Source: an uncultured Gammaproteobacteria bacterium (lineage in GTDB: Bacteria > Pseudomonadota > Gammaproteobacteria > JABCZS01). From it: DNA of 64,000 nucleotides. The stretch is taken from NCBI GenBank assembly GCA_963848305.1, contig CAWKDC010000003.1:32001-96000 (forward strand). Reading direction: 5' to 3'. Shown in pieces: positions 56,052 to 58,772 of the stretch (positions are counted from its first letter, which is position 1; each line of letters opens with the position of its first letter). The position numbers were made by a program, and so were the translations under genes. The notes beneath the pieces were generated by a model. The model made no database searches. It had not been told where the DNA came from and worked only from the letters and a program-made list of their open reading frames with translations.

Positions 56052-58772
56052 ATGTTGACGACACAAGACGTGAAAAAAAGGGCTGCTGGCGATATGCGCC
56101 CAGCGGGGAATGCTGAGTTTGGCGCAGATGTCACGATCCAACCCCATCCCAAGAAAACAAGACTTACCCCAGATGAAAGTGCAGAGCCAGCAAGGGTTTC
56201 GCGTGTCCTGCCTAATGAAAATATCAATTCGATTAACACTCAAACTAATTCAAATAACCAGGCAAAACCCGATTCCGATCACACCTGTTTGGTATTAAAT
56301 GATGCACAATTAGAAACTATAAAATCAAAAAAAGGCAACAAAGGCATTGATATGCTTATCGAAGATAGTTATGAAAAAGTATATCAATGCGGCTTTCGTG
56401 ATCAAGAAGAGCTTTTTATTTTTTTGAATGTGAGTGGAGCAAAGTATAGAATCCAGTGCATTATTAAACACTATGAAAACCTCATGAAATGTGGTTATCA
56501 TTTTAACGATTCAGATATTCGTGCTCTCTGTTCTGGAGCTGGTGTTCATGAAACGATTCATGTGATCCTTGATAAGGCAGAGTTTTTGATAGCGGAAGGG
56601 TTCAAAAAAGAATTCATGGTGAGTATTGCTAGAAAAAGCGGCACGCATCGTGTTCTTAATACACTTATATATCAAGATAATCTCAAAACTCTCAAAGAGT
56701 CAGGGTTCACGCCCGGGATACTTCTTTCCATGCTGAACAGAAATCATGCATTGAATATCTTAGTGCTGACACTCATGTGTATTGAGGATGGAACGCTAAA
56801 AAATAAAAACATGACGGCTGACATTATCGTTACTAAGTTTCGTTCTAGAAAGGGTAAGCCATACGAATTCGTAGAATATTTGAAAGAGACAGGTAAAACC
56901 ATTGAAGAACTTGAACAATGGGCCTTGACAAAAAAAATCGATATAACAACGCGCAGGATTTCCGTTGAAAATGTAACGAATGCTCAGGATTCCCGAGAAA
57001 CAAGAATGACTGATGATGAAAACGCAGCGCTAGGAGAAGCTTCTTCCGTATCACCTTCACAGCCCCAGCAAGAGAAGAACAATCTTTCCCAAGATCAACG
57101 ATACCGTATTAGAAAACAAAATGGGAATGGTGAAATTGTTCAGTATCTTCAGTCAAAAAAAGATATTTTGAATTCGCTTGGATATGCTTCTGAAAAAATA
57201 TTTTATGAATTACTTAATCGGGAAAATGCGAAAACGCATTTGGATAATCTTATCAAAAACACCAATAAACTTAAGGATTGTCAATTCAAATTCACGCTTG
57301 ATCAAATCATCAGGCTGCACTATCCTGCGCTTTGCGAGTTATCAATCGACATCATACTTCGGAATCAAGCATATTTCATTCACTATGGATTCAATAATGA
57401 AAATATAACCCGCATCGCATCACATGATAACTCACCAAAAATTCTATGTATTCTTAGTGAACAAACGAATATGTTCAAATTGAAATTGGCAGGCTTTGAT
57501 GCAGGGGTTCTTGCTGGTATCTTAGATACAGAATATGGCTTTGATATTTTGTGTTTAACCCTTATGTGCGTCGAAGATAAAACCTTTGTAAACAAGAATA
57601 TTAGTGTTTCGACAGTTGAGGGATGGCTTGCTGAAAAGACACATGTCAGTAGTAGGGTGTATTTTATTCATTTAGGAAAAACAAGAGAAGAGCTTGTGGA
57701 CTGGTTAAAGGGGAGGAAGAATAAATATGGCAATTTAGCAGCGCTTGCTCAGCCAAAGGGAAAGAAAAGCACCAATACAGAGACGAAGGCTGCTAAAACC
57801 AATTCAAATAATCAACCAGAAAAACCTTCTGATCATACCTGTCTGGCGTTGAGCGAGTGGCAGATAAGAACCATTAAATCTAAGGTTGGCAATAAGGATT
57901 TTATTGATCCGAGCAATGATAGGTATGCCGATTTTTACCGATGTGGATTTAGGAATCAAGATGAGCTTTTTCACTTTCTGAATGTCCATAGTGCAAAATA
58001 TAAAGCAGATAGCATCATCAAGTACAATGAACAGCTTAAAAATTGTTCTCATCATTTCAATGTGTTAGAGATTCGCGCGCTTTGTGCTGCATGGGAAAGC
58101 GATAAGACAATAAAGTTGCTTCTCGATAATCTCGATTATTTTAATGCGGCAGGATTTGAAAGAAAGCATTTACTGAGCATTTGCAAATTACACAGTTCAT
58201 ACCGTGTGATTAATATCTTATTATGTAAAGATAAACTCGATAAACTTAAAGACGCAGAATTCACGCCTCAACTTATCACACCAATGCTTTACAGAAATAG
58301 GGCTGCAAATAGCCTAGCACTCACCATAATGTGTGCTGAAGATGGAACGTTAGCCGCTAAAAATTTGACCGCAGTTATTATCTCTCGCAACTTTTCAGCG
58401 TCTCGAGATAAAAATCTTTACACTTTCACGGACTATTTGAAAGCGACCGGAAAGACAATCAAAGAGCTAAACGATTGGGCTAGGTTGAATAATATCGATC
58501 TCAATCAAACCCTTGAGACAGACGCTAATACAACAAAAGACAAAAGAGCTCACAGAAAGTCACCTGCAACTACTCAACAAGCTAAGAAGAAAAGTGCCAA
58601 AAAGCAAAACCCTGTGCCAGAAAATGCTGCTACGACGAACTCCAATAACCAGCCAGTCGCACACAACACAACAGGGACATCCGCACCTGTCTTAACGAAC
58701 TATCGATCGGGTACTGATGAAGAATTTGCTAATCTACTACTGTCTTTGAACAAACCTTCCGTACCGAAGTAG
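56052..58772 (+). CDS. Orphan protein with three modules of diverged TALE/Bat-like 33-36-aa repeats (candidate nuclear effector)
   Basis: Repeats such as FNNENITRIASHDNSPKIL..., FNDSDIRALCSGAGVHETIHVILDKAEFLIAEG (33 aa) and FKKEFMVSIARKSG...; basic NLS-like patches at both ends. Confidence 0.65.
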   Translation: MLTTQDVKKRAAGDMRPAGNAEFGADVTIQPHPKKTRLTPDESAEPARVSRVLPNENINSINTQTNSNNQAKPDSDHTCLVLNDAQLETIKSKKGNKGIDMLIEDSYEKVYQCGFRDQEELFIFLNVSGAKYRIQCIIKHYENLMKCGYHFNDSDIRALCSGAGVHETIHVILDKAEFLIAEGFKKEFMVSIARKSGTHRVLNTLIYQDNLKTLKESGFTPGILLSMLNRNHALNILVLTLMCIEDGTLKNKNMTADIIVTKFRSRKGKPYEFVEYLKETGKTIEELEQWALTKKIDITTRRISVENVTNAQDSRETRMTDDENAALGEASSVSPSQPQQEKNNLSQDQRYRIRKQNGNGEIVQYLQSKKDILNSLGYASEKIFYELLNRENAKTHLDNLIKNTNKLKDCQFKFTLDQIIRLHYPALCELSIDIILRNQAYFIHYGFNNENITRIASHDNSPKILCILSEQTNMFKLKLAGFDAGVLAGILDTEYGFDILCLTLMCVEDKTFVNKNISVSTVEGWLAEKTHVSSRVYFIHLGKTREELVDWLKGRKNKYGNLAALAQPKGKKSTNTETKAAKTNSNNQPEKPSDHTCLALSEWQIRTIKSKVGNKDFIDPSNDRYADFYRCGFRNQDELFHFLNVHSAKYKADSIIKYNEQLKNCSHHFNVLEIRALCAAWESDKTIKLLLDNLDYFNAAGFERKHLLSICKLHSSYRVINILLCKDKLDKLKDAEFTPQLITPMLYRNRAANSLALTIMCAEDGTLAAKNLTAVIISRNFSASRDKNLYTFTDYLKATGKTIKELNDWARLNNIDLNQTLETDANTTKDKRAHRKSPATTQQAKKKSAKKQNPVPENAATTNSNNQPVAHNTTGTSAPVLTNYRSGTDEEFANLLLSLNKPSVPK

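Follow-up and report, generated by a model that had tools for sequence, protein, structure and literature searches.

Here we show that one gene in the window (the whole 64,000-nucleotide stretch of DNA that was analysed), at positions 56052-58772 of the + strand, encodes a divergent TALE-like protein of 906 amino acids, made up of three modules that each hold about six degenerate two-helix repeats of 29-36 amino acids. Our preferred reading, to which we assign a probability of roughly one half, is that this protein is a Dot/Icm-delivered, nucleus-targeted TALE-like effector, whose basic patches would be nuclear localization signals (NLSs) and whose tail would be its secretion signal. Such a protein would be expressed from its own promoter; its polar-rich last ~30 residues (with DEE 16-18 residues from the end and hydrophobic residues after it) would be recognised, leading to injection into a eukaryotic, probably protist, host; the K/R clusters of its disordered linkers would act as classical importin-alpha signals and give entry to the nucleus, inside which the three modules would bind DNA. 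The three steps of translocation, nuclear import and DNA binding are inferred.

Three modules of degenerate TALE-type repeats

The modules are about 215 amino acids long and lie, like the other features of the gene, on the + strand, at 56274-56942 (module A, residues 91-313), 57078-57710 (module B, residues 359-569) and 57828-58505 (module C, residues 609-834, with six repeats of 29-36 amino acids plus a cap); residues of motifs and modules are numbered along the 922-aa open reading frame, the likely product having 906. Modules A and C share 48% identity, and module B is the most divergent, with 26-30% identity to the other two. The earlier note, made from the letters of this DNA, had called the arrays TALE-like, and the sequence and structure comparisons bore this out. 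Searching the PDB sequences with phmmer matched only BurrH (E 1.8e-15), whose alignments to module A lie within residues 126-275, and hhalign against the Legionellales TAL-like protein P0013 gave 95.5% and an E-value of 1.5e-8 with 149 columns in register. The AF2 model of module C has a core pLDDT of about 90, and its top Foldseek matches were all TALEs, the first being an AvrBs3-DNA complex. VIA Z values for this model were 13.8 for BurrH (which superposes with an rmsd of 3.1 over 190 residues), 13.2, 12.6, 12.3 and 11.4 for TALE chains, and 5.7 for the next fold. Sequence, model and fold comparisons hence agree on tandem two-helix repeats of TALE type, 33-35 aa long in the Xanthomonas and Ralstonia proteins, which form a right-handed superhelix. 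The AF2 single-sequence model of the full 906 amino acids reached a mean pLDDT of 32.9, and is uninformative on the N-terminal flank and on how the modules are arranged.

The repeats are far from uniform. Nearly identical copies whose differences are for the most part at positions 12 and 13, the repeat-variable pair, were not seen among the six repeats of module C, where mean pairwise identity is 25% and the differences are spread over the whole repeat. By eye, one loop of module B shows H-D where the repeat-variable pair of TALEs aligns. Degeneracy of this degree speaks against taking DNA binding for granted, and it is a putative function of the modules.

The Pfam model TAL_effector (PF03377), on which published assignments rely through InterPro, did not match the 906-aa protein at E-values up to 10, and 10 of the 11 non-self matches that we recovered are, by inspection, proteins with canonical TALE-like repeats. 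The one member of the same subfamily among 1.84 billion representatives, and the sole match of the profile search with the alignment, is P0003. This hypothetical protein of 427 aa, encoded on a 377-kb metagenome contig, resembles our protein with an E-value of 6.7e-17 and 33% identity across one whole module. Neither the module-alignment search of genome contigs and metagenome contigs nor the ESM Atlas yielded a relative or a usable match, respectively.

Gene start, promoter and origin

The 906-aa protein is the product of a single gene with its stop codon TAG at 58770-58772. The start at 56064 given in the earlier note does not stand, there being no start codon at that position; the likely start is ATG 56052, which is preceded by a ribosome-binding site AGGAG at 56036-56040 (the two together spanning 56036-56054), at which the database gene product P0002 (906 aa) begins, as called by the database gene callers. 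This start is also favoured because the -10 hexamer of the promoter overlaps ATG 56004. That promoter, which had been described as a consensus sigma70 promoter of the gene's own, is real as a pattern: at 55977-56005 we found TTGACA-17-TAGAAT with TG before the -10, a match at 11 of 12 positions, well placed upstream of the gene. Sites scoring at least 11/12 numbered 67 in the 3,785,298 genome bases scanned, so that about 0.002 would be expected per 100-base window.

The gene has a GC content of 38.6%, within the lowest 3.3% of ORFs in this genome of 1.89 Mb, and the same junction is found without it in both other genomes of the genus. It is a low-GC, species-specific insertion, which speaks for a foreign origin. 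Pieces identical to it, with no variants, occur in contigs of 4 soil/wetland metagenome DNA runs, and the public runs listed as carrying it include no RNA run. For the BamD of this genome the search gave only distant named relatives, at 45% to a gammaproteobacterial MAG and about 43% to Cardiobacteriaceae.

Basic patches and a repeated linker

All the motif strings listed in the earlier note (KKR, PHPKKTRL, KRAHRK...KKKSAKK, TDEEFANLLLSL and NSNNQ three times) are present in one reading frame. The N-terminal basic pair spans 56073-56165, with KKR at 56073-56081 (residues 24-26) and PHPKKTRL at 56142-56165 (residues 47-54). In the B-C linker, of net charge +7, the pair RKNK...KGKK (57714-57767) follows a loose bipartite pattern, and the C-terminal pair KRAHRK...KKKSAKK (58542-58604, residues 847-867) reads as KR, 12 residues and then KKK. 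The copies of NSNNQ, in full form TNSNNQ, start at residues 82, 600 and 879 and lie at the end of the linker preceding module A (56247-56261), in the B-C linker (57801-57815) and in the C-terminal linker (58638-58652). The repeated linker is composed of two basic clusters, a T/N-rich stretch and TNSNNQ; one copy precedes module A, and the other two lie on either side of module C. The A-B linker (56943-57077) is acidic, with a net charge of -3, and has neither TNSNNQ nor a basic pair. Only one of 2000 shuffles of the protein contained any 5-mer three times, and the C-terminal linker resembles the B-C linker with a z of 3.2 (2 of 500 shuffles reach the score). The triple NSNNQ is an internal duplication of the linker and not the work of chance.

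The consensus for monopartite NLSs is K(K/R)X(K/R) and that for bipartite ones KRX10-12K(K/R)X(K/R) (PMC6989684). The resemblance of PKKxR to a monopartite signal, which the earlier note had pointed out, holds in that KKTR (residues 50-53) fits the first of these, and the basic patches do flank the arrays. The strict bipartite consensus is not found in the C-terminal pair, where KR-x12-KKKS fails at the last position. Looser bipartite forms are present, namely the one asking for 3 of 5 basic residues and KR-x10-12-K[KR][KR], itself a looser form of the bipartite NLS.

Could the patches and the tail be incidental low-complexity features of duplicated disordered linkers, with no targeting function? 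All the patterns are frequent in the proteome, K(K/R)X(K/R) being carried by 303 of the 1712 crude ORFs of the genome and the loose bipartite pattern by 116, and lysine is enriched throughout the protein (9.3% vs 5.0%); moreover, the three linkers are duplicates of a single unit, so that their recurrence is not independent. We regard this explanation as improbable, as it sits poorly with the persistence of the basic clusters in three linker copies despite divergence of the sequence between them and of the modules (to 26-48% identity), and with the rarity of KR-x10-12-K[KR][KR], which 5 of the 1712 crude ORFs carry, this one among them. It also has to face P0003, which at 33% module identity retains N-terminal basic clusters, module and acidic-hydrophobic tail in the same order, its KKQR and KPSMRK aligning with our N-terminal pair, although conservation of the layout is here a single comparison with one close relative. 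K(K/R)X(K/R) is found in 11 of the 13 TALE-like proteins examined, a tally of related, long proteins in which some patches lie inside the repeats, against the 303 genome ORFs given above. Each targeting signal taken alone is a weak pattern of low specificity and common in the proteome, and NLS-like patches together with a C-terminal motif are what one expects of TALE-like effectors, unsurprising by themselves.

The C-terminal tail

The candidate Dot/Icm signal occupies the last 30 residues (58680-58769), which end in K with V at position -3. Within it, TDEEFANLLLSL covers residues 904-915 (58713-58748), 7 residues short of the C-terminus. The terminal helix after a disordered linker that the earlier note had proposed is reproduced by the model, in which residues 835-922 have pLDDT below 50 and one short helix is predicted exactly over DEEFANLLLSL. 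The same note had called this tail acidic and amphipathic, and only part of the description survives: acidity is real locally, at DEE, but overall the last 30 residues hold 3 D/E and 3 K/R, a net charge of 0, and the hydrophobic moment of 0.32 is average, at the 68th-69th percentile of 12-mers.

These values bear on whether the tail would also act in transcription, as an activation-type helix, a role compatible with that of a secretion signal and part of the fuller first reading of this DNA. Activation motifs include the type hydrophobic-x-x-hydrophobic-hydrophobic, to which F-x-x-L-L in the tail belongs, and EEFANLLLS fits the 9aaTAD pattern, although 179 of 1712 ORFs have a match to that pattern within their last 30 residues. 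The predicted helix in a disordered region would suit such a role, as would the similar acidic-then-hydrophobic run with which the AvrBs3-family C-terminus closes and the acidic-hydrophobic stretches near the ends of P0003 and of several TALE-like proteins. We nevertheless judge the role unlikely. The strongly acidic composition of a C-terminal activation domain is lacking in the last 30 residues, where the AvrBs3-family C-terminus used for comparison, an X. citri plasmid copy, has 9 D/E and 0 K/R; amphipathicity is average and similarity to an AvrBs3-type C-terminus is not significant, so that the activation-domain reading of the tail in the earlier note is not upheld. Homology of the tail with the AvrBs3 activation domain was rejected as unsupported, since its score is equalled or exceeded by 892 of 2000 shuffles and by the tails of 597 of the 1712 proteome ORFs. 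In the available text of PMC7382252, Btl19-13, a TALE-like protein with no activation domain, did not activate its reporter.

A Dot/Icm signal at the C-terminus combines an E Block, placed 8-25 residues before the end, with small polar amino acids and a hydrophobic one close to the terminus; the tail has all three features, although their specificity is low. An E Block is described, in the part of PMC3096851 at hand, as 3-6 acidic residues in 6-10 with a preferred zone 11-18 residues from the end, and DEE starts 18 residues from the end, inside this zone. At least 3 acidic residues within 8 occur in the same C-terminal zone of 384 of 1712 crude ORFs, and an EE-type motif there in 169; 6 of the 1712 combine an E Block with a hydrophobic residue at -3/-4 and a polar fraction of at least 30%. 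Over the last 35 residues we counted 13 S/T/N/Q, which ranks in the highest 4.4% of the 1712 crude ORFs, and the mean count over the last 35 residues is 11.5 in the 13 ORFs with Ank hits against 6.9 in the proteome. Judged on composition and motifs, the last ~30 residues are more likely to be a secretion signal than an acidic activation domain of TALE type.

The Dot/Icm system of the genome

The genome carries the type IVB secretion system on which the effector reading depends in the earlier note: we detected the Dot/Icm components DotI, DotH, DotG, DotB, DotC, DotD, IcmS, DotM, DotL, DotA, DotN and DotF, that is, including dotA, icmS, dotL and dotM. The Pfam model DotA (PF11388) had no match in the genome, and DotA was detected by the NCBIfam DotA models. 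DotI is present in 11 of 12 genomes of the order, and Ank_2 matches number 17 in this genome. Three genes of the system, dotH/icmK, dotG/icmE and one dotA copy out of two, are each broken into a pair of ORFs in this assembly; both sister genomes have an intact dotH. Genuine breaks would mean that the system may be in decay, but purA is split in the same assembly as well, which suggests that the splits are assembly indels. The DotM residues R196 and R197 have been reported to bind E Blocks (PMC11602083); in the DotM of this genome I and P align with them, and arginines lie 3 and 5 places further on.

The split genes are among the observations that would favour a protein that is never exported and whose target is the DNA of the bacterium itself, a regulator or nucleoid-associated protein with basic linkers that are non-specific DNA-contact arms and not NLSs. 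A sigma70 promoter of housekeeping type would fit such a protein, as would the basic pairs, which directly adjoin the arrays, lie in linkers with a net charge of +7 and recur within the repeated unit. We hold it to be improbable for several reasons. The relatives found are all from host-associated lineages or are canonical TALE-like proteins; DotI has been kept in 11 of 12 genomes of the order; the gene is a low-GC, species-specific insert, as with the Ank genes, and its polar-rich C-terminus is similar to those of the Ank ORFs. Contact with DNA and a role as NLS are, besides, not mutually exclusive.

Functional interpretation

Taking these results together, the transcription-factor-mimic layout proposed in the earlier note is retained as regards the TALE-like arrays, the flanking NLS-like patches, the Dot/Icm-bearing genome, the promoter and the layout of P0003, but not as regards the activation-domain tail and the strict bipartite NLS. 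A bolder view, which we offer as speculation with little chance of being right, is that of a 'beads on a string' TALE-like nucleomodulin forming a new architectural class, with self-contained DNA-binding modules, linker cassettes that would each bring their own bipartite import signal, a dual-use tail and a C-terminal cassette that may be left over from a fourth module. The tail may in such a protein serve as Dot/Icm export signal and then, in the protist nucleus, as a co-regulator-binding helix of the hydrophobic-x-x-hydrophobic-hydrophobic kind, and P0003 would be an example of one module standing alone. The C-terminal cassette (basic pair, TNSNNQ and tail) aligns to the start of a module without statistical support. 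The tail as a truncated module start was suggested by the MAFFT alignment and discarded; the local alignment ends at TNSNNQP, likewise without statistical support.

Returning to the preferred reading of a Dot/Icm-delivered, nucleus-targeted effector, if the linkers and the tail do work as proposed, then a protist-associated bacterium would have united an export signal, a nuclear import signal and a DNA reader in a single compact type IVB effector, from which very divergent repeat scaffolds could also be drawn. The TALE family extends well past the sequence reach of Pfam and InterPro, into a little-known order of Dot/Icm-bearing soil bacteria, and the modular three-array layout has not been described previously. 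To our knowledge, TALE-type DNA readers were long believed to be limited to plant pathogens and one endofungal genus. Papers of 2022 and 2025 extend TAL-like proteins to the Legionellales, always with canonical repeats as far as their available text goes (PMC9418006, PMC12482156).

Comparison with known systems

P0003, the closest protein, differs from ours in having a single module as opposed to three, in being without the TNSNNQ linker and in a far more acidic tail, with 7 acidic residues 8-25 from the end against 3 here. The TAL effectors of Xanthomonas and Ralstonia (AvrBs3 family) share the repeat fold (Z 11.4-13.2) and the order of repeats, basic NLS-like patches and a short acidic-hydrophobic C-terminal helix, in keeping with the four-part TALE anatomy outlined in the accessible part of PMC7382252. 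They have, in contrast, one long array of near-identical repeats, whereas here there are three short arrays with repeats 25% alike; they match Pfam TAL_effector, a match absent here, and our tail is neither strongly acidic nor significantly similar to theirs. Their export is of type III with an N-terminal signal, the system in this genome being type IVB, with a C-terminal signal.

The Bat/Btl proteins of Mycetohabitans rhizoxinica (BurrH, PDB 4cj9/4cja) are the best match among PDB sequences and structures, and their repeats too are more degenerate than TALE repeats. One of them, Btl19-13, has a functional cryptic short NLS in yeast, according to the portion of PMC7382252 cited above. Bat/Btl proteins differ in having single long arrays with short flanks, in a type III-secreting endofungal bacterium, while in the present protein flanks and linkers are long and disordered, with basic pairs that recur.

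With the Dot/Icm nucleomodulins of Legionella and Coxiella (RomA/LegAS4, AnkH, SnpL, AnkG and Cbu1314, named in the available section of PMC7819608) our protein would share type IVB delivery, an NLS and a site of action inside the nucleus of the host; those proteins carry SET, ankyrin and other domains, and none of those named there is a TALE-type DNA reader.

For the putative TAL-like effectors of Legionella and other Legionellales, the accessible text of PMC12482156 counts 19 proteins, spread over 14 genomes and with L. quateirensis WP_058473422 among them, with an NLS predicted in 14 of the 19 and a type IV effector call in 16; P0013, matched in our search, is one of these 19, and a TAL effector has been noted in Comchoano-2 (PMC9418006). 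The sister genome G001 carries a canonical TAL-like protein (Pfam TAL_effector, E 1.8e-10). As with our protein, the Legionellales TAL-likes belong to Dot/Icm-bearing intracellular lineages and have terminal K/R patches and acidic stretches near the C-terminus. Unlike it, they have canonical 33-aa repeats with a loop of G-G-S-K-N type and are found by InterPro, whereas the protein described here is missed by Pfam, is built of 215-aa super-modules and has one close relative. NLS-bearing TAL-likes of the Legionellales being already known, this protein is a divergent new variant.

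Coding frame, start codon and promoter

A single long ORF occupies positions 56004-58772 of the forward strand of the window (922 codons, from whose ATG residues are numbered here), and every string quoted in the earlier note is present in its frame: KKR (residues 24-26), PHPKKTRL (47-54), KRAHRK...KKKSAKK (847-867) and the terminal TDEEFANLLLSL (904-915). The NSNNQ motif does recur three times, in fact as TNSNNQ (residues 82, 600 and 879); among 2000 shuffled versions of the sequence, a single one contained any 5-mer three times. The motif observation is confirmed. A gene beginning at 56064, as the same note had it, would lack a start codon at that position. 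The sigma70-type promoter it proposed, TTGACA-17-TAGAAT with TG before the -10 hexamer (55977-56005, forward strand), matches the consensus at 11 of 12 positions and is correctly placed, but sites of this quality (67 per 3.79 Mb scanned on both strands) are no more frequent in the genome than in shuffled sequence, and the weight of the site is therefore its position. Because the -10 hexamer overlaps ATG 56004, the true start is most likely ATG 56052, eleven bases on from an AGGAG, giving 906 amino acids in agreement with the database gene callers (P0002, forward strand).

A divergent three-module TALE-like protein

Searching Pfam and NCBIfam with the protein yielded no match (best E 0.15), and the sole matches among all PDB sequences were two BurrH entries (E 1.8e-15). 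Aligned with P0013, a member of the Legionellales set of TAL-like proteins in PMC12482156, the module profile gave a probability of 95.5% (E 1.5e-8) over 149 columns, which cover four and a half in-register repeats. The AF2 model of module C, for which only four family sequences were the input, had a core pLDDT of about 90; every top Foldseek match to it was a TAL effector, and in a structure search independent of Foldseek BurrH scored Z 13.8 (rmsd 3.1 over 190 residues), four TALE entries scored 11.4-13.2 and the next fold 5.7. Four lines of evidence (PDB sequence, profile, Foldseek and the second structure search) place the protein among the TALE-likes.

Each of its three modules spans about 215 residues (A, 91-313; B, 359-569; C, 609-834), A and C being 48% identical and B sharing 26-30% with either. 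Module C comprises six repeats of 29-36 residues that average only 25% identity to each other; the hallmark of true TAL effectors, almost identical repeats bearing a variable pair, is therefore absent.

HMMER searches against 1.84 billion representatives (E up to 0.001) returned 12 proteins including the subject, one of them P0003, a metagenome protein of 427 amino acids that aligns with an entire module at 33% identity. The remaining 10 are, by inspection, canonical TALE-like repeat proteins, among them P0013 and one from Francisella adeliensis. Neither the protein nor the family profile retrieved anything beyond the subject and P0003 in word-based searches. P0014, from another metagenome, reproduces the last 147 residues exactly, and the 90% cluster of P0002 holds two 45-residue members (P0015 and P0016) unrelated to it in sequence. 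A second TALE-like gene was looked for in the subject genome and none was found. In the sister genome G001, of the same genus, contig C11 carries a canonical TALE-like gene (L017:1027-2106; 359 amino acids, about eight 33-residue repeats) with H-D, N-S and similar pairs in the repeat loops, a Pfam TAL_effector match (E 1.8e-10) and tblastn matches to Mycetohabitans and Xanthomonas TALE genes.

Genomic context

Gene order in the window is rlmI-like, DUF2147, the TALE-like gene, a TraI_2-family gene, bamD and rluD. At the same junction the rlmI-like gene of G001 directly adjoins the TraI_2-family gene, and in the second sister genome, G002, the gap holds a ParE/RelE-type toxin-antitoxin pair and pabA/pabB (window 54220-60178; L020:5423-9398; L021:6088-11974). 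The subject gene is an insert at this variable junction, and its GC content of 38.6% lies in the lowest 3.3% of the 1712 crude ORFs of the genome. The rlmI-DUF2147 block is inverted in the subject genome. The TraI_2-family protein (window 58808-60178, reverse strand; 456 amino acids, TraI_2 and TraI_2_C domains) belongs to a putative conjugative nickase/helicase family; its gene adjoins bamD in all three genomes of the genus (identity 56-59%), which suggests a resident of the chromosome and not a component of a mobile element.

The genome (1.89 Mb, 4 contigs, 46.7% GC, 92% complete) is one of 12 in its order, all small and of one family, and metagenome contigs with pieces identical to the subject gene come from soil and wetland runs of three studies. 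It carries a Dot/Icm cluster with DotH, DotI, DotG, DotB, DotC, DotD, IcmS, DotM, DotL, DotN and DotF, and with two tandem dotA genes identified with NCBIfam DotA models, one whole (789 amino acids) and one split (151 + 686; L004:6757-11654, contig C1:929757-934654). Of the 12 genomes, 11 have DotI, and the one without it is 53% complete. The split dotA copy, purA, dotG/icmE and dotH/icmK are each two adjacent ORFs in the assembly (C1 about 905.8-907.2 and 918.3-932.3 kb; L003:2856-4207, L003:15367-18383, L004:6757-9282), and dotH is a single frame in both G001 and G002. The splits may be indels of the assembly or may mark a decaying secretion system.

Basic patches and linkers

The basic patches are ordered rather than dispersed, three linkers sharing a plan of two basic clusters, a T/N-rich stretch and TNSNNQ: the clusters are KKR ... 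PHPKKTRL ahead of module A, RKNK ... KGKK ahead of module C and KRAHRK ... KKKSAKK behind it. Alignment of the B-C linker with the C-terminal one reaches z 3.2, a score attained in 2 of 500 shuffles; the N-terminal and C-terminal linkers align at chance level except for TNSNNQ, and the A-B linker is acidic and without this plan. As to the NLS-like patches proposed, they are present and KKTR fits the monopartite form K(K/R)X(K/R), but no site in the protein fits the strict bipartite form (both as quoted in PMC6989684), and the monopartite pattern is common in the proteome (303 of the 1712 ORFs; strict bipartite, 4). A loose bipartite rule (two basic residues, a 10-12 spacer, 3 of 5 basic) applies three times here and in 116 ORFs, and PKKx[KR] occurs in 11. 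KR-x12-KKK matches a bipartite variant, KR-x10-12-K[KR][KR], present in 5.

In P0003, KKQR and KPSMRK align with the two N-terminal basic clusters, and 11 of 13 TALE-like proteins examined contain a monopartite match. These proteins are long relatives of one another, and some of the matches fall within their repeats. It is plausible that the patches are import signals retained while the remaining sequence drifted. They may instead be DNA-contact arms, a role that sequence alone does not distinguish from nuclear import.

The C-terminal tail

Residues 835-922 are predicted to be disordered (pLDDT <50), with one short predicted helix over DEEFANLLLSL. Three acidic residues starting 18 from the end fall within the preferred E Block zone, 11-18 from the C-terminus (PMC3096851); V stands at -3, and the last 35 residues include 13 S/T/N/Q (top 4.4% of the proteome). 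The acidic feature alone is found in 384 of 1712 ORFs. In the DotM of this genome, the arginines to which E Block binding is attributed (PMC11602083) are not conserved in place. There are 17 Ank_2 matches in the genome, and the C-termini of 13 Ank-hit ORFs average 11.5 S/T/N/Q in the last 35 residues, as against 6.9 proteome-wide, and are not acid-rich (for example C1:233573-235210 and C1:227902-229677); these C-termini may show the local flavour of a type IVB signal. The subject tail fits a Dot/Icm signal and is a candidate for one.

The acidic, amphipathic activation domain suggested for the tail fared poorly. Net charge over the last 30 residues is 0, as against 9 acidic and no basic residues in an AvrBs3-family C-terminus (X. 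citri plasmid copy), the hydrophobic moment is at the 68th-69th percentile, and the tail resembles that C-terminus no more than chance would give. EEFANLLLS matches the 9aaTAD pattern, but the pattern also matches the last 30 residues in 179 of 1712 ORFs. The case for a putative activation domain is weak, and the activator reading is the weakest part of the whole interpretation. The C-terminal 150 residues of P0010, P0009 and P0013, TALE-like proteins of other bacteria, gave local scores of 36, 29 and 26 to the AvrBs3-family activation-domain end, above the 18 of the subject tail, a likeness that may be a shared short motif.

Comparison with known TAL-like proteins

A literature search on TALE-like proteins and Legionella brought up no description of this architecture. 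TAL-like proteins for which NLSs and type IV signals are predicted were reported in 2025 from Legionella and related bacteria (PMC12482156), and one was noted in 2022 in a Coxiella-related choanoflagellate associate (PMC9418006); in view of these reports, the protein is a new, divergent form of an already known type. A reasonable reading is that it may act as a nuclear effector. The layout agrees with TAL effector anatomy (secretion signal, NLSs, repeats and activation domain; PMC7382252), with the difference that the candidate secretion signal lies C-terminally, where type IVB delivery requires it.
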